From IMG/VR virus record IMGVR_UViG_3300041405_000130: a stretch of DNA of 64,000 bases, one strand, 5' to 3'. The notes beneath the pieces are model-generated. The model saw only the letters and a list, made by a program, of their open reading frames with translations. It was not told the origin of the DNA and searched no databases. Positions 438-6,738 of this stretch are shown here, one piece after another. The position numbers and the translations under genes are program-made. Every line of letters starts with the position of its first letter. The first letter of the stretch is position 1. The stretch comes from a virus. Taxonomy: Duplodnaviria; Heunggongvirae; Uroviricota; Caudoviricetes.

Positions 438-524
438 GCGGGGATGGTGGAGCGGTATACGCAGCGGCCTTAAAAGCCGCCGCCCAACTGGGCTCGCTGG
501 GTTCGAATCCCGCTCCCCGCACCA
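438..524 (+). tRNA. tRNA-Leu (anticodon TAA), type II with long variable arm, CCA encoded
   Basis: Acceptor GCGGGGA/TCCCCGC, anticodon arm GCGGC-CTTAAAA-GCCGC, T-loop GGTTCGAATCC, discriminator A, then CCA. Confidence 0.85.
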
Positions 525-530
525 AACATA

Positions 531-560
531 GTGCCTGCCTTTTGGGCAGGCTTTATGCCG
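531..560 (+). terminator. GC hairpin (GCCTGCC-TTTT-GGCAGGC) followed by TTTATGC, after the tRNA; extended -10 TGATATAAT follows at 565-573
   Basis: Read directly from sequence; same stem-TTTATGC arrangement recurs window-wide. Confidence 0.5.
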
Positions 561-564
561 CGTT

Positions 565-573
565 ATGATATAA
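565..573 (+). promoter_or_regulatory. Extended -10 sigma70-like promoter TGaTATAAT upstream of CDS 592
   Basis: TGnTATAAT match; RBS GGAG at 581-584 and ATG at 592 downstream. Confidence 0.45.
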
Positions 574-591
574 TCTTAATGGAGCATAAAT

Positions 592-1317
592 ATGTTCGAA
601 TCACTATTGTCCAGTGGCCACCCAGGCGCTGCAGAAACGGGGGATGTGGTATTCCTATATGACCCTGTTACAAATACGGATCTTGTTGGTGGTCCAGCAG
701 TAACCACACTATCGGGTGGTGCAGTCGCAGATGAAACTATTTTGATCAATGGGCAACCTACTCTTAAATTTCCATCCGTAACAGCAAAACATGTTATTAC
801 ATTTCCTACGGATCTAAATTTAGTCCAAGGTAATTGGACATTGGAGTGGTCGTTTATCAACAACAGTGCGCCAACAGCTTATGCCAACGATTTCGTAATG
901 TACTCTAGAACTGGTGGTGCAGGCGTTGGTCTATATACCCGTTTTGGAGATGGTGGGTTCCTTAACCGTTGGGTATTGTCAGATCCAAGAGGTGCAGCAA
1001 CTCCGAGTCTCACGCAACCTTTACCGTTCACTAAAGCAGCATTGGTTGGGTTAACGACTAACGTAGCCCTGGTCAGTATTGCCGGCGTCATCCGGGTATA
1101 CGTTAACGGCGTAGCTACAATGATGGCCCTGGGTAACGGTAGCACCAACTACAACCAACCTACCTTTATAGCTGAAGGTATGGACAAGATTTATGCATTT
1201 GGTCTAGGTGATGTCAACTCTACTGTTCGAGCAGTACCAGGGAACCGTGGTCGTATTCGACTAAGTAACTTTGCTAGATATAAGAGCAACTACACTCCTG
1301 GCCCATTGACCCTGTAA
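592..1317 (+). CDS. Hypothetical protein embedded in tRNA cluster; concanavalin-A/LamG-like beta-sandwich suspected (RVYVNGV motif)
   Basis: 241-aa ORF, ATG with GGAG RBS 8 nt upstream; weak motif-level resemblance to LamG/lectin folds only. Confidence 0.55.
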   Translation: MFESLLSSGHPGAAETGDVVFLYDPVTNTDLVGGPAVTTLSGGAVADETILINGQPTLKFPSVTAKHVITFPTDLNLVQGNWTLEWSFINNSAPTAYANDFVMYSRTGGAGVGLYTRFGDGGFLNRWVLSDPRGAATPSLTQPLPFTKAALVGLTTNVALVSIAGVIRVYVNGVATMMALGNGSTNYNQPTFIAEGMDKIYAFGLGDVNSTVRAVPGNRGRIRLSNFARYKSNYTPGPLTL

Positions 1318-1345
1318 AAAAATACTACCAGTGTAATAATATACA

Positions 1346-1430
1346 GCGGACATGGCGGAATTGGTAGACGCACTGGATTTAGGTTCCAGCGCCGCAAGGC
1401 GTGAGAGTTCGAGTCTCTCTGTCCGCACCA
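1346..1430 (+). tRNA. tRNA-Leu (anticodon TAG), type II, CCA encoded
   Basis: Acceptor GCGGACA/TGTCCGC, anticodon loop TTTAGGT, long variable arm, T-loop GTTCGAGTC, discriminator A + CCA; close to the enterobacterial tRNA-Leu pattern. Confidence 0.9.
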
Positions 1431-1524
1431 AACGTGCTCTACGGAGCCAACAAGTAAGAGCGTAATCGTTAACGCTTCGTTAACCGAGGTCATGGTGAGA
1501 AAGGAGTGTGGTTCGATTCCACAT

Positions 1525-1556
1525 GATAAGTCTTAAGGACAATAAGCCTTAAGTAA
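1525..1556 (+). other. tRNA-like T-arm fragment (TGTGG-TTCGATT-CCACA) with no pairable acceptor stem; possible tRNA remnant or small RNA
   Basis: Canonical T-loop seen but no 5' acceptor complement in the upstream 100 nt; adjacent perfect hairpins (CTTAAGG...CCTTAAG 1551-1574; ATCGG...CCGAT ~1601-1616). Confidence 0.3.
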
Positions 1557-1631
1557 CTCTGGTGAGACAAATGGTTCGGCCAGCTAGGCCGTTAAATGCA
1601 TCGGCGGAATCCGATCAAGTAGCAAAGTTTT

Positions 1632-1719
1632 GGAAGTATGGCCGAGTGGGTTAAGGCAGCAGTCTTGAAAACTGCCGGGTGTAACAGCCCCTAGAGTTCG
1701 AATCTCTATGCTTCCGCCA
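1632..1719 (+). tRNA. tRNA-Ser (anticodon TGA), type II, CCA encoded
   Basis: Acceptor GGAAGTA/TGCTTCC, anticodon loop CTTGAAA, long variable arm, T-arm TAGAG-TTCGAAT-CTCTA, discriminator G + CCA. Confidence 0.9.
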
Positions 1720-1726
1720 ATTTAGA

Positions 1727-1813
1727 GCTGAGATGGCAGAGTGGACGAATGCGCGGGATTGCAAATCCTGTTTCGAAAGATCATCGGGGGTTCAAATCCC
1801 TCTCTTAGCTCCA
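1727..1813 (+). tRNA. Atypical tRNA with Cys identity (anticodon GCA, discriminator U73) but a ~15-nt variable region and 3-bp D-stem; CCA encoded
   Basis: Acceptor GCTGAGA/TCTTAGC (one G-U pair), anticodon arm CGGGA-TTGCAAA-TCCTG matching the canonical tRNA-Cys anticodon arm, T-arm GGGGG-TTCAAAT-CCCTC; extra TTTCGAAAGATCATC between the anticodon and T arms. Confidence 0.6.
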
Positions 1814-1814
1814 A

Positions 1815-1890
1815 GCCGTTATAGCTCAGTAGGTAGAGCAACTCACTTGTAATGAGAAGGTCGCGGGTTCGATTCCTGCTGACGGCACCA
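1815..1890 (+). tRNA. tRNA-Thr (anticodon TGT), CCA encoded
   Basis: Acceptor GCCGTTA/TGACGGC, D-arm GCTCAGTAGGTAGAGC, anticodon loop CTTGTAA, T-arm GCGGG-TTCGATT-CCTGC, discriminator A + CCA. Confidence 0.9.
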
Positions 1891-1994: not shown

Positions 1995-2381
1995 ATGTAT
2001 CCACACAACTATTTCCCTAAACGTAAAACAGCAGCTGAGCGTCTGCGTGACGGCGAAGCATATCGGGCAATGTTAGATAAACAAACAGCAGCCGAAGCAG
2101 AGCGTACTCGGTTCAAAGGACCTGAGCCAATCCAGGAAGCCATAGTGGCTTATGGAGCTGGCTTACAACCATACTTCAATGACATCCGGGGTGATAGCAC
2201 TTGGAGCAATGCACAGATCTGTGGTAAGTTAGAAATAGCCATGCATGAGATCCGTGACGGCTTTACCGAAAGGCAGAAAGCTTATAAGACATATGAGCCT
2301 ACGGTTGTATTTGTAGAAGAAGGCAGACGTGGATATTTCTCGTTGCGTTTAGATGGTTGGGAAATAGGGAAGATTAGCTAA
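1995..2381 (+). CDS. Hypothetical protein (128 aa)
   Basis: ATG at 1995 with AAGAGGA RBS; the ORF-track start at 1941 (MARLRVSF) is a TTG inside the hairpin element and is rejected. Confidence 0.55.
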   Translation: MYPHNYFPKRKTAAERLRDGEAYRAMLDKQTAAEAERTRFKGPEPIQEAIVAYGAGLQPYFNDIRGDSTWSNAQICGKLEIAMHEIRDGFTERQKAYKTYEPTVVFVEEGRRGYFSLRLDGWEIGKIS

Positions 2382-3262
2382 TGGATCTTATCTTTAAGCA
2401 ACATGTTTCACAACTCGATCAATCGGTTAACTTCGAACACCGCTTTGCTGACCACCCTGGGATGCTAGAGGCACGTTACGTACGTCGGGTTGATGACTAC
2501 TTCATTGTTTACTTGTCTTCTCAGACAGGTTGTGAACAGGCTTGCCGGATGTGTTGGCTGACAGCAACAGGGCAAAACAAGACACGCGATGTTACTGTAC
2601 AGGAATACTTGGACCAGGCTAAAGAAGTCCTCAAGTATTACGATGAACGTAACCCAGCTAAGATGGTACACTTTAACTTCATGGCACGCGGTGAACCATT
2701 CGCCAATAAGATCTTTCTAGAGCATGCAGATGAAGTATTGGCTGGACTCGCCACTTTAGCTAAAGAACGTGGACTGGAATACAAGTTCCTGATTTCTACG
2801 ATCTTTCCCGAAGAGGTAGGGTACATTGATCTTACTGAGATCTTTAAAGAACCCGCGTTATATCCAGAACTGTACTACTCTATCTACAGCATGGACAAAA
2901 AGTTCCGTAGACGGTGGTTACCAAAGGCAGCCTCCCCAGAACGAGCATTAGACGAATTAAAGGCATGGCAAGAGCACACGGGTAAAATCCCAAAGATTCA
3001 CTATGCGTTCATTAATAATGAAAACGATAGTCTTGGTGCAGTTAAAGCGATCTGTGACGAAATCGTTGAACTAGAACTCGATGTGAATTGGAACGTAGTT
3101 CGTTATAATCCACCAGAAGGACATTACTCCAAGGAAACAGTAGAAGGGCAAATACACTACCTAGCTGGTTACATTCGTAGTCGGTTACCTAAGGCACGTG
3201 TTAAAGTAATCCCTCGGGTTGGTACGGATGTCCAAGCGAGTTGTGGTACGTTCTTGAAATAA
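2381..3262 (+). CDS. Radical-SAM enzyme of the RlmN/Cfr family (adenosine C2 methyltransferase acting on tRNA A37 / 23S rRNA), N-terminally truncated relative to bacterial RlmN
   Basis: SSQTGCEQACRMC is the C-x3-C-x2-C cluster in the RlmN context (compare SSQVGCALECKFC), TATGQNKTRDVTVQE matches RlmN STAQQGFNRNLRVSE, the MARGEPFAN motif (compare GMGEPL) and a C-terminal ...ASCGTF (compare AACGQL) catalytic Cys. Confidence 0.7.
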   Translation: MDLIFKQHVSQLDQSVNFEHRFADHPGMLEARYVRRVDDYFIVYLSSQTGCEQACRMCWLTATGQNKTRDVTVQEYLDQAKEVLKYYDERNPAKMVHFNFMARGEPFANKIFLEHADEVLAGLATLAKERGLEYKFLISTIFPEEVGYIDLTEIFKEPALYPELYYSIYSMDKKFRRRWLPKAASPERALDELKAWQEHTGKIPKIHYAFINNENDSLGAVKAICDEIVELELDVNWNVVRYNPPEGHYSKETVEGQIHYLAGYIRSRLPKARVKVIPRVGTDVQASCGTFLK

Positions 3263-4129: not shown

Positions 4130-4483
4130 ATGCGATTCAATTGGGAACCCGGTCGACAAGGAACAGGTTACGAGAAATTACAACTCTTAAACCGTTGGAA
4201 GTTCTTTAGTCGATTTAAATGGGATCTTTACTTACTGCGTTACCCGGTAGGCTCAGGTATCCCTAGACATCGTGATCCATTACCTAACCACAGGCATTAC
4301 CGGTTAAACATCTATCTGCGCAACGCAAGTGCAGGTGGTGTCCCTGAACATGATGATGTAATCATAAGCAACCGCTTCTTTACATTGTTCAGACCAGATT
4401 TGTCAACACACAGCGTTAGCCCCGTAACTAAAGGTACGCGCTATGTCTTAAGCTTTGGCTTATCAAAACAAATTAACGTCTAA
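4130..4483 (+). CDS. Small 2-oxoglutarate/Fe(II)-dependent oxygenase-like protein
   Basis: H-x-D (RHRDP) ... H (THSVSP) ... R-x-S (RYVLS) motif arrangement typical of the 2OG-Fe(II) dioxygenase double-stranded beta-helix; GAGG RBS. Confidence 0.5.
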   Translation: MRFNWEPGRQGTGYEKLQLLNRWKFFSRFKWDLYLLRYPVGSGIPRHRDPLPNHRHYRLNIYLRNASAGGVPEHDDVIISNRFFTLFRPDLSTHSVSPVTKGTRYVLSFGLSKQINV

Positions 4484-4511
4484 ACTCTCTTTCCATCCGC
4501 GTGAGGTTTAT

Positions 4512-5777
4512 ATGAAACAAGAAACAAAGACATTTGAAATCATTGGTGGAGAACCCGAACCGGGAACTAAACCGATCAAAGGCTGGACTGTCGGCGTGCC
4601 GGTAGAACCAGAAGCTGTTAAACAACTGAAGAACATTGCTGCACTTCCGTTCATCTATTCCCACGTCGCAGTAATGCCTGACGTTCATTTGGGTAAAGGT
4701 GCAACGGTTGGTTCTGTGATCGCTACTAAAGGCGCTATCGTGCCAGCAGCAGTCGGTGTAGACATTGGGTGCGGAATGGCAGCCCAACGCCTGCGCTTCT
4801 CCTCAGACGCGCTTCCAGAGTCTCTGGGGCATCTCCGTGCCGCTATTGAATCGTGCGTACCTCATGGACGTACGGATAATGGCGGTAAGAACGATCGTGG
4901 TGCTTTTGGTACCGTGTCTATCTTCAATCATCAAGTGAAAGCTGTACGCGAAGAAGCTGAAAAGCTCCGCCGGCAACTGGACTCGATTGTTGAACGGCAT
5001 CCAAAACTGAAGCGTGCTTCTGAGAAAGCCTGGAACCACGTAGGTACACTTGGTACAGGTAACCACTTCATCGAACTGTGTCTAGATGAAACAGATCGTG
5101 TGTGGATTATGCTGCACTCTGGTTCTCGTGGTATTGGTAACGCTATCGGTTCGTACTTCATCGAGAAAGCCAAAGAAGAGATGGGTCGGTTCTTCATCCA
5201 TCTGCCGGACAAAGATCTGTCATATCTTCCAGAAGGTTCCCGTTACTACAACGATTACGTTGAAGCGGTATCCTGGGCGCAGCGCTTTGCTGCATTGAAC
5301 CGTTCGGTAATGATGCACGCTGCACTGGGCGCTATTCACCGTACGTTGGGTCTGCCGATTGATTCTGATATGGAAGCAATCAACTGCCACCACAACTACG
5401 TGTCTGAAGAACGACACATGGGACAAAACGTTATCGTAACTCGTAAGGGTGCGGTAGCTGCTCATGAAGGTACTCTGGGGATCATCCCTGGATCGATGGG
5501 TGCTAAGTCTTTCATCGTTCGCGGTAAAGGTAATCGTGATTCCTTCTGCTCGTGTTCGCATGGAGCTGGTCGTGTCATGTCGCGTACCCAAGCTGCCAAG
5601 ACCTTTACACTGGAAGATCACATCCGTGACACAGCTGGTGTTGAATGCCGTAAGGATATCGAGGTAATCGATGAAACACCTAAGGCATACAAAAACATCG
5701 AAGACGTGATGTCTGCTCAGGAAGAACTGGTAGATATCGTTCATACACTGAAACAATTCCTGTGCGTGAAAGGATGA
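4512..5777 (+). CDS. rtcB: RtcB RNA 3'-phosphate/2',3'-cyclic phosphate to 5'-OH ligase (tRNA/RNA repair)
   Basis: Hallmark RtcB motifs GTLGTGNHFIE, CHHNY and SHGAGR; 421 aa from ATG 4512 (GAGG RBS); the ORF-track start at 4455 is TTG. Confidence 0.9.
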   Translation: MKQETKTFEIIGGEPEPGTKPIKGWTVGVPVEPEAVKQLKNIAALPFIYSHVAVMPDVHLGKGATVGSVIATKGAIVPAAVGVDIGCGMAAQRLRFSSDALPESLGHLRAAIESCVPHGRTDNGGKNDRGAFGTVSIFNHQVKAVREEAEKLRRQLDSIVERHPKLKRASEKAWNHVGTLGTGNHFIELCLDETDRVWIMLHSGSRGIGNAIGSYFIEKAKEEMGRFFIHLPDKDLSYLPEGSRYYNDYVEAVSWAQRFAALNRSVMMHAALGAIHRTLGLPIDSDMEAINCHHNYVSEERHMGQNVIVTRKGAVAAHEGTLGIIPGSMGAKSFIVRGKGNRDSFCSCSHGAGRVMSRTQAAKTFTLEDHIRDTAGVECRKDIEVIDETPKAYKNIEDVMSAQEELVDIVHTLKQFLCVKG

Positions 5778-5778
5778 T

Positions 5779-6738
5779 ATGGACTATACCGGATTCTGCC
5801 AAGCCGTTGAGGAGTTTGGATTAAAACATGTACGGGATGTGTCGAGTAGTTATTACTTAACACAAGCCCAAAAATACGTTTACATCATCGGACGTATCAA
5901 CGAAGATCTTCGGCGCAGGTTCCCTGATGCCGAATTCCAAACCGATTCTTGGTTTGACTTTGACCACGGCGACATAACCAAACAACATTGGTTCGTGTCA
6001 TCTACAATCTACCAAAATGACCGCGCATTCCAATACCAGATCCGTATTATTCAAACGTATCTGCAGGAAGGTAGCGACTACGAAATTGAGAAAAAGGAAA
6101 GACCATACATGTCACGATTCCAAGACCGCGTACAGAAATACAGCCTCGACATCTTTGCTGAACTGACAGTCGATGCTAGTCTGTCTTCCAGCGAGTTCAT
6201 CACCAAGTTCGAGAAAGCACTTATCGATAAACTAGAAGAGACCTATGACCGTAAAGGTTTTGAAGTGTCCCTGACAGTAAGTCATGGTAAGAGTGTTGTA
6301 TATACTGCTTCGGTAGAAGATGCCATTGATGGTGCGGAAGTTACACTGGAAATTGGTCGTGAAGACTACATCGCCTCCACCGAAGAAAAGCCAGGTCTCA
6401 AGTGGACTAAAGACTTCAGTCTTGAAGCTGTTTATAAAGAAGATCCTGAGTTCTTCAATAAACTGTCTAAGGTTCGGGCAACGATTGAATTCAGTCGTAT
6501 CGCTACTAATGCACTGACTGATGCTTTCTTGACTAACGAAGAAGCTGTGGACAAGAACCTCGGTGCTTCCGTTATCCACGATTACGTAGCGCAGAAACTA
6601 CAAGAAGCAGCACCACCTTGCGAGTTCACTATTAAAGTGGAAGTTGAAAATCGCACGGCAACGCTGCACGTAGAAGAAGCTACCACCAAAGTTAAGTTCC
6701 GCTTGCGCGCAACTCGTGAACTGGATACTGCTGAATGA
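5779..6738 (+). CDS. Hypothetical protein (319 aa) immediately downstream of rtcB
   Basis: ATG with AAAGGA RBS; no recognisable motifs. Confidence 0.55.
   Translation: MDYTGFCQAVEEFGLKHVRDVSSSYYLTQAQKYVYIIGRINEDLRRRFPDAEFQTDSWFDFDHGDITKQHWFVSSTIYQNDRAFQYQIRIIQTYLQEGSDYEIEKKERPYMSRFQDRVQKYSLDIFAELTVDASLSSSEFITKFEKALIDKLEETYDRKGFEVSLTVSHGKSVVYTASVEDAIDGAEVTLEIGREDYIASTEEKPGLKWTKDFSLEAVYKEDPEFFNKLSKVRATIEFSRIATNALTDAFLTNEEAVDKNLGASVIHDYVAQKLQEAAPPCEFTIKVEVENRTATLHVEEATTKVKFRLRATRELDTAE

Follow-up and report, generated by a model that had tools for sequence, protein, structure and literature searches.

A phage tRNA-Cys with an ordinary cysteine body and a short hairpin in its variable region

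Introduction

The gene that is located at positions 1727-1813 of the window (i.e. the whole stretch of 64,000 nucleotides of phage DNA, IMG/VR record IMGVR_UViG_3300041405_000130, that we have analysed) encodes, with a probability of about 0.75, a functional phage elongator tRNA-Cys with an ordinary body, in which the variable loop has been replaced by a short, selected hairpin; the molecule is therefore class-II-like in shape. In bacteria, a long variable arm is the textbook hallmark of the Leu, Ser, Tyr and Sec tRNAs. The original prediction had named a functional, unusual tRNA as one of several readings, and this has turned out to be the most likely one: the Cys identity set (GCA, U73) is combined with a variable region of class II length. 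Comparison of related sequences demonstrates the hairpin to be a selected structural module of a recurrent tRNA-Cys subclass, which occurs in many unrelated phages and on Phycisphaerae chromosomes.

Structural elements of the tRNA-Cys gene

ARAGORN places a tRNA-Cys (GCA) exactly at 1727-1813 on the plus strand, and Rfam RF00005 matches the gene along the whole model (positions 1-71 of 71) with 53.8 bits (E = 8.8e-9), i.e. above, rather than below, the gathering score of 29; the gene-finder and covariance check that had been proposed for this gene has thus come out in favour of a tRNA-Cys. Its structural elements are the following:

1727-1813, plus strand: tRNA-Cys(GCA), 87 nt with the encoded CCA, 7/5 cloverleaf, 15-nt variable region (ARAGORN, Rfam, RNAalifold consensus of relatives)
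1736-1752, plus strand: D arm GCA-G-AGUGGACGA-A-UGC, with the 3-bp stem GCA/UGC, a G13•A22 mismatch, G15 and G18G19 (sequence)
1761-1763, plus strand: anticodon GCA, in the loop UUGCAAA (U33, A37, A38) (sequence, ARAGORN)
1771-1785, plus strand: variable region UUUCGAAAGAUCAUC, 15 nt, with C48 as its last base (sequence, Rfam)
1773-1780, plus strand: variable-arm mini-hairpin UC-GAAA-GA, in which U1773-A1780 and C1774-G1779 close a GAAA tetraloop (1775-1778) (register from relatives)
1786-1802, plus strand: T arm GGGGG-UUCAAAU-CCCUC, 5 bp (sequence, Rfam)
1810-1813, plus strand: discriminator U73 (1810), followed by the encoded CCA (1811-1813) (sequence)

Direct reading of the sequence gives an acceptor stem of 7 bp (GCUGAGA/UCUUAGC), and the anticodon arm, CGGGA-UUGCAAA-UCCUG, has a stem of 5 bp. 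The branch consists of the 7-bp acceptor and a 5-bp T stem, both in the Rfam alignment and in the RNAalifold consensus, and U8 is unable to pair with C65. The D arm has an 11-nt loop region beyond its 3-bp stem, and C48 (1785) is likely to be the Levitt partner of G15. The canonical Cys anticodon arm and the U73 discriminator, on which the original prediction was built, are confirmed by the sequence reading and by ARAGORN, and the stretch of about 15 nt that had been noticed between the anticodon and T arms is indeed present at 1771-1785. The 3-bp D stem is also present; its interpretation as a class II marker, however, does not hold, since short phage tRNA-Cys share the 13•22 mismatch.

With 15 nt and a stem that is backed by covariation in relatives, the variable region has class II architecture, i.e. 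at least 10 nt that form a stem-loop. The structural element is not the palindrome TTTCGAAA that had been put forward, which cannot fold on itself and is not conserved (the related phage D6 has TTTCTTAA), but the conserved hairpin UC-GAAA-GA. The window copy of this hairpin is the weakest among the relatives compared, with two Watson-Crick pairs and an energy of only -0.3 kcal/mol, and the next pair outward is a U1772•U1781 mismatch. The minimum-energy fold of the naked tRNA-Cys sequence is not the cloverleaf (-25.8 vs -21.7 kcal/mol, z = -0.55).

The tRNA cluster and its neighbouring genes

The tRNA-Cys gene is the fourth of five tRNA genes, each of which has an encoded CCA; the cluster is followed by a radical-SAM, a 2OG-Fe(II) oxygenase-like and an RtcB gene:

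438-1890, plus strand: tRNA cluster of five genes, Leu-Leu-Ser-Cys-Thr (ARAGORN; Rfam, all five matched)
438-524, plus strand: tRNA-Leu(UAA) (ARAGORN, Rfam)
1346-1430, plus strand: tRNA-Leu(UAG) (ARAGORN, Rfam)
1632-1719, plus strand: tRNA-Ser(UGA) (ARAGORN, Rfam)
1815-1890, plus strand: tRNA-Thr(UGU) (ARAGORN, Rfam)
2381-3262, plus strand: radical-SAM protein (weak Pfam match; the D6 homologue is annotated as RlmN)
4130-4483, plus strand: 2OG-Fe(II) oxygenase-like ORF, downstream of the tRNA cluster
4455-5777, plus strand: RtcB RNA ligase (E = 2.9e-126)

The tRNA-Cys gene is tightly packed between its neighbours, with 7 nt between Ser and Cys and 1 nt between Cys and Thr. The scan for promoters and terminators around the cluster returned no sigma-70 match and no terminator call on the plus strand. 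Downstream of tRNA-Thr and ahead of the following gene, at 1944-1961 on the plus strand, the sequence GCTCGCC-TTCG-GGTGAGC forms a hairpin of 7 bp around a UUCG loop, after which comes TTTAT. This hairpin, which the terminator scan left uncalled because its T run is too short, may act as a weak terminator of the tRNA cluster or as a signal for its processing.

The radical-SAM, 2OG-Fe(II) oxygenase-like and RtcB genes downstream of the cluster together suggest a module for the repair or modification of RNA; most of them recur in the Pseudomonas jumbo phages D6 and RVTF4 and in the IMG/VR contigs L020, L039 and L045, while in contig L040 the radical-SAM gene alone was matched. Between the two tRNA-Leu genes, an ORF of 241 aa (592-1317, plus strand) has no Pfam match and, among the loci compared, one weak relative (30% identity, in L040); this could be an orphan gene, or a mobile one, that has been inserted into the tRNA cluster. 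As for demand, the ORFs of the window contain about 13 Cys codons in every 1000, and UGU accounts for half of these.

Conservation at the locus in related phages

A long-form tRNA-Cys is located at the same Ser-Cys-Thr position in six relatives, i.e. in phages D6 and RVTF4 and in contigs L020, L039, L040 and L045. The nearest cultured phage is D6, whose 87-nt tRNA-Cys is 90.8% identical to that of the window; the tRNA-Cys of RVTF4 has 88 nt and 79.5% identity. The original prediction had reasoned that a normal, short tRNA-Cys at this locus in related phages would reveal a recent insertion; such a short form has not been found at the locus in the related phages, which have the long form instead.

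The nearest IMG/VR relative is contig L039. Its radical-SAM and RtcB proteins are 75% and 84% identical to those of the window, yet a single nucleotide separates the two tRNA-Cys, and their variable regions are the same. In D6, the variable region reads UUUCUUAAGAACAUC, as compared with UUUCGAAAGAUCAUC in the window. Despite such changes, the register of the stem can be followed across relatives: AUC-GAAA-GAU in L020, UCC-GAAA-GGA in L043, CCC-GUAA-GGG in L008 and UUC-UUAA-GAA in D6. The arm of the window and of L039 is UUC-GAAA-GAU, with U•U as its outermost pair.

Apart from its tRNA-Cys, L039 has a second class I isotype with an extra arm: an 85-nt tRNA-Asn(GUU) at 9812-9896 on the minus strand, with the variable-arm hairpin GAC-AUA-GUC; this region of L039 corresponds to sequence upstream of the start of the window.

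Evidence that the variable arm is a hairpin

The evidence for the hairpin comes from three comparisons that differ in their dependence on an alignment. In a plain MAFFT alignment of seven long-arm sequences, RNAalifold recovers the full cloverleaf together with the variable-arm stem, two of whose three pairs change on both sides; over the whole structure, 97.5% of the cells are paired, as compared with 31-46% in slid controls, and none of 500 shuffles reaches this value. This subset of seven, and a covariance-model alignment beside it, have been used because, when 15 diverse long-arm sequences were aligned with MAFFT, arms whose stems have 4-5 bp or whose loops have 5-6 nt fell out of register.

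In the covariance-model alignment of 54 distinct phage long-arm tRNA-Cys, which is fitted to the structure under test and hence biased in its favour, 134 of the 154 arm-stem cells pair, with 5-6 pair types per position; the slid controls reach 32-69, and the column shuffles 66±5 with a maximum of 84. The third comparison is free of alignment: of the 45 distinct phage variable regions, 31 contain a GNRA tetraloop with a closing stem of 2 bp or more, whereas 1.4 are expected from 1000 shuffles of the same variable regions (maximum 7), an enrichment of about 20-fold. A test of the longest stem per sequence against shuffles did not separate the real from the shuffled variable regions, because these regions are too short.

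Across the phage long-arm tRNA-Cys, the arm has a stem of 2-5 bp and usually a GNRA cap; the stem of the window has 2 bp, and those of its relatives 3-5 bp.

The body and the identity elements of tRNA-Cys

The part of the molecule that surrounds the arm is of the Cys type. The core of the window tRNA (positions 8-9, D arm, 26, anticodon arm and T arm) is 93% identical to that of 78-nt phage tRNA-Cys with AAAACC as the variable loop, a match that is as close as those to the long-arm orthologues in D6 or L020. When the anticodon arm and the acceptor are left out of the core, the short tRNA-Cys are still the nearest (top-5 mean of 0.90), followed by Ser (0.84) and Tyr (0.81). The D arms are near-identical, with GCAGAGAGGTCCAATGC in short phage tRNA-Cys and GCAGAGTGGACGAATGC in the window; of the 95 short phage tRNA-Cys among the matches listed, 65 have G•A and 10 have A•A at 13•22. 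Segment-wise identity has been used here because profile-HMM scoring of the isotype, with the anticodon and the discriminator masked, gave similar scores for Ser (28.8) and short Cys (27.0), and because nhmmer, with the whole anticodon arm masked, gave a fragmented match without signal.

The discriminator and the variable region of the tRNA groups that we have compared are as follows:

Phage long-arm Cys: discriminator U in 53/53; variable region with a median of 14 nt (10-20)
Genomic long-arm Cys: discriminator U in 89/89 among the matches listed; variable region with a median of 14 nt (12-18)
Phage short Cys: discriminator U in 94/95 among the matches listed; variable region of 4-7 nt
Phage Tyr: discriminator A in 32/32; variable region with a median of 14 nt
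Phage Leu: discriminator A in 85/86; variable region with a median of 13 nt; AA at 14-15 in 82/86, U48 in 82/86
Phage Ser: discriminator G in 78/89; G2:C71 in 89/89; variable region of 15-25 nt

The anticodon GCA is kept in all 53 phage long-arm tRNA-Cys that were parsed and, among the matches listed, in all 90 genomic ones, and the loop UUGCAAA occurs in 52 of the 53 phage sequences. The identity bases of the window tRNA are U73, C35, C2:G71 and G15:C48. It thus has both of the major features of a CysRS substrate, i.e. the anticodon G34 C35 A36 and U73; it lacks those of tRNA-Ser (G73, G2:C71 and a multi-bp stem in an arm of some 15 nt or more, as compared with U73, C2:G71 and a stem of 2-3 bp), of bacterial tRNA-Tyr (A73 and U35, as compared with U73 and C35) and of bacterial tRNA-Leu (A73 and an A15:U48-type core, as compared with U73 and G15:C48). 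Neither is it of the selC* or tRNA-Sec-like type, with an 8/4, 8/5 or 9/4 branch and an extended anticodon stem, having a 7/5 branch and a 5-bp anticodon stem, nor of the allo-tRNA type, with an 8/4 or 9/3 branch and a tRNA-Sec-like D arm.

The CysRS of E. coli uses A13:A22 along with G15:G48. This E. coli-type core is absent from the window tRNA, which has G15, C48 and G13•A22, and also from most of the short phage tRNA-Cys, 67 of 95 of which, among the matches listed, have C48. U73 and GCA are the major CysRS determinants, while G15:G48, a strong determinant for the E. coli enzyme, is conserved in only a few bacterial species (PMC9976931). Since G15:C48 and G13•A22 differ from the E. coli determinants, the efficiency with which a given host enzyme would charge the window tRNA is uncertain.

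Distribution of the long-arm tRNA-Cys

We have scanned IMG/VR for a pattern in which GGATTGCAAATCC is required and is followed by a T loop; 82 stretches were found with a long spacer and at least 120 with a short one. The prevalence figures are rough, because GGATTGCAAATCC was required in the scans and the numbers of short-form and genomic matches are lower bounds. The phage contigs contain about 54 distinct long-arm tRNA-Cys, all of which have U73 and GCA, and the variable-region lengths in the phage tRNA-Cys sample fall into two groups, of 4-7 nt and 10-20 nt. The exact anticodon arm of the window is found at 43 loci among the matches listed, 5 long and 38 short, a rough ratio. Long-arm tRNA-Cys are also present in unrelated cultured phages, i.e. 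in the T4-like E. coli phage EcS1 (87 nt), in Caulobacter phage CcrPW (85 nt) and in Vibrio phage pv27 (82 nt).

In a scan of one genome per bacterial species, at least 120 matches were obtained, and almost all of those listed are from Phycisphaerae or other Planctomycetota; at least 90 long-arm tRNA-Cys, mostly from Phycisphaerae, could be parsed. The Planctomycetota sequences (L090-L209) are 81-88 nt long, have U73, and have a covarying arm of 3-5 bp that is mostly GNRA-capped. In Phycisphaerae, the long-arm tRNA-Cys is a lone chromosomal gene without an encoded CCA, located in L099, for example, between secA and the glutamine synthetase gene glnA (about 6210-6251, minus strand); a lone gene in such a housekeeping setting implies that a cell can rely on the long-arm design. 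At some Planctomycetota long-arm loci (L175 and L197), a 74-nt copy is present as well.

Further departures from the class rule have been observed in the phage tRNA clusters. A second recurrent long-arm class consists of 21 distinct phage tRNAs with the anticodon UAU (Ile) and a length of 89-94 nt (e.g. L013 4629-4720, L033 1170-1263, L053 5635-5728 and L019 3669-3759), most of which have a near-invariant motif close to CCAGATTAG in their long variable arms. Conversely, 49 distinct phage tRNA-Leu of 73-78 nt are without a long arm (e.g. L026 1869-1945 and 2344-2420, L035 1994-2070 and L025 7284-7360), and two phage tRNA-Tyr of 76 and 79 nt have been seen; the occurrence of short Leu and Tyr tRNAs beside long-arm class I isotypes makes class switching in phage tRNAs seem bidirectional. 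Capped variable arms in other contigs, on Ile-UAU, Asn, Thr, Met and Lys tRNAs, have been named as possible examples of a wider rebuilding of phage tRNA scaffolds. Four contigs whose clusters also hold a long-arm tRNA-Cys (L021, L024, L026 and L044) contain tRNAs of 74-77 nt with the anticodon CUA, which ARAGORN labels as 'Pyl' and which are probably amber suppressors.

Proposed function of the window tRNA-Cys

As an elongator, the window tRNA-Cys would be transcribed together with its neighbours in the Leu-Leu-Ser-Cys-Thr cluster and would mature through the action of host RNase P and trimming of its 3' end, with the CCA already encoded; the host cysteinyl-tRNA synthetase would then charge it with cysteine through U73 and the GCA anticodon, and it would read UGU and UGC in the phage mRNAs. 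As a class I synthetase, CysRS docks on the face of the tRNA opposite the variable region, which points to the solvent, and tRNA-Cys already has the 3-bp D stem and the 13•22 mismatch that class II cores use. The arm is presumably tolerated because CysRS approaches from the other face and because the D stem is already class-II-like; this tolerance has a precedent, since the long-arm selC* tRNA-Cys is charged by a CysRS in vitro (PMC5389517). We favour the view that the arm props the tRNA core or elbow, leaving the amino-acid identity unchanged.

Alternative explanations

The arm could serve in counter-defence, either by hiding the tRNA-Cys from a host immune nuclease or a phage tRNA-destroying enzyme, or by making it a decoy, while the decoding of Cys continues. 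Variable arms are attacked by defence nucleases, unrelated phages that infect Pseudomonas, E. coli, Vibrio and Caulobacter share the long arm, and the cluster adjoins the RtcB, radical-SAM and 2OG-Fe(II) oxygenase-like genes, whose conservation in related jumbo phages fits a contest over the integrity of tRNAs. The RtcB module, however, is confined to the jumbo-phage subgroup, and 38 of the 43 phage tRNA-Cys with the same anticodon arm, roughly and among the matches listed, are short; the open-access papers that we retrieved, in searches aimed at other questions, mention no defence nuclease that targets tRNA-Cys, and in Phycisphaerae this design serves as a housekeeping gene outside the phage context, so that a long arm needs no arms race in order to exist. 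We therefore consider this role unlikely. To a broader proposal, too, we give low odds: that phages rebuild their tRNA scaffolds, by adding an arm to Cys, Ile-UAU, Asn, Thr, Met and Lys tRNAs and removing it from Leu, in order to escape tRNA-targeting host immunity or the destruction of host tRNA that the phage itself directs, or to produce decoys, with the hairpin at 1773-1780 as an instance beside the RtcB module.

It is very improbable that the molecule is a class II tRNA, derived from Tyr, Ser or Leu, that has acquired a Cys anticodon and is charged with Ser, Tyr or Leu, or is left uncharged, with miscoding of UGY or a role outside translation as the outcome. The changes from GUA to GCA and from GCU to GCA are single ones, long-arm tRNAs with non-Ser anticodons do exist, as allo-tRNAs (PMC5389517), and a variable region of 15 nt is like those of Tyr (median 14) and Leu (median 13) and lies at the lower end of the range of Ser (15-25); U73 is also present in 8 of 89 phage tRNA-Ser. 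Against this, U73 is invariant in the long-arm Cys, as opposed to A73 in 32/32 phage Tyr and 85/86 Leu; the window has C2:G71, as opposed to G2:C71 in 89/89 phage tRNA-Ser, and G15:C48, as opposed to A at 14-15 and U48 in tRNA-Leu; and its stem has 2-3 bp, while the tRNA-Ser arms seen here, as read by eye, are longer. The best non-Cys BLAST match is a phage tRNA-Tyr (80% over 74 nt, Klebsiella phage KP6F1), a similarity explained by a D and T core common to Cys, Tyr and Ser; a tRNA-Tyr origin, considered on the basis of the BLAST matches, has been rejected as the best reading, since the short tRNA-Cys match at least as closely and share the D arm, although tRNA-Tyr may be a deep ancestor. The core itself is nearest to short tRNA-Cys (0.90, vs 0.84 for Ser and 0.81 for Tyr; 93% when the anticodon arm is included).

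A decaying tRNA-Cys gene, with junk inserted into its variable loop, was the pseudogene reading of the original prediction, and is now scarcely credible: the marginal hairpin and the non-cloverleaf minimum-energy fold would suit it, but every helix is intact, the gene clears the Rfam threshold by a wide margin and its CCA is encoded. A recent insertion is likewise contradicted by the six related phages that have the long form at the locus and show compensatory changes in the stem of the arm, by the identity of the variable region in L039 despite a divergence of 16-25% in the neighbouring proteins, and by the roughly 20-fold enrichment of GNRA hairpins over shuffled sequence across the class. 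Recoding of UGA, with a Sec-like function a single anticodon change away, had been suggested as well. It is not supported: the branch is 7/5, GCA is kept in the 53 phage and at least 90 genomic members, and an IMG/VR scan for an opal suppressor, with the same anticodon arm and UCA, yielded a single contig, whose variable loop is short.

Comparison with known systems

The window tRNA shares with the ordinary class I tRNA-Cys(GCA) the anticodon, U73, G1:C72, the 3-bp D stem with its 13•22 mismatch, the UUGCAAA loop and the 7/5 branch; it differs in the variable region, which has 4-6 unpaired nt in the ordinary molecule and 15 nt with a capped hairpin in the window. With the bacterial class II tRNAs (Leu, Ser and Tyr) it shares the layout of the arm, i.e. 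1-2 unpaired nt, a short stem, a small loop and 3-4 unpaired nt up to position 48; the length of the variable region is like that of Tyr and Leu, whereas the identity elements and the body are those of Cys.

In nematodes, V-arm tRNAs (nev-tRNAs) are reportedly charged by SerRS or LeuRS, miscoding or suppressing, a finding attributed to Hamashima et al. in 2016. Both the nev-tRNAs and the allo-tRNAs combine, as the window tRNA does, a long arm with the anticodon of an amino acid whose usual tRNA is of class I; the allo-tRNAs, however, are predicted to be charged by SerRS or LeuRS and hence to miscode or suppress, and have 8/4 or 9/3 branches (PMC5389517), whereas the Cys identity set is complete in the window tRNA. 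The selC* tRNA-Cys (Mukai et al., PMC5389517) has U73, GCA and a long variable arm in common with it, but has an 8/4 branch, a longer anticodon stem, a tRNA-Sec-like shape and sometimes UCA, as opposed to 7/5 and a 5-bp anticodon stem; selC* adjoins selB*/cysS* in anaerobic bacteria, and the window gene is located in a phage tRNA cluster. Because its branch is 7/5, and not 8/4 or 9/3, the window tRNA-Cys is neither a selC* tRNA nor an allo-tRNA.

In phage T5, a tRNA-Tyr with a variant variable loop resists Retron-Eco7; the nuclease is known and the resistance has been shown experimentally (PMC13096335). The variable region of the T5 tRNA differs from that of the host, as does that of the window; the T5 isotype, however, is already class II.

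In the reviews and surveys that we retrieved, tRNA-Cys is listed as class I, with the 8/4 selC* as the sole long-arm exception (PMC4810241, PMC7609411). We have found no description of a 7/5 long-arm tRNA-Cys in the open-access papers that we searched, and GenBank labels the long-arm genes of D6 and EcS1 simply as tRNA-Cys. As regards annotation, a phage tRNA-Cys call of 85-90 nt should be kept rather than discarded as erroneous or as a pseudogene. The long-arm tRNA-Cys is also a naturally occurring case in which the response of CysRS, EF-Tu, modification enzymes and tRNA-targeting nucleases to a switch of class can be tested, and could supply orthogonal tRNA scaffolds. The role of the window tRNA-Cys is probably an ordinary one, though the molecule is a clear and widespread exception to the textbook: a 7/5 tRNA-Cys with a conserved, GNRA-capped arm, occurring in dozens of phage lineages and on Phycisphaerae chromosomes, blurs the rule that separates class I from class II tRNAs.
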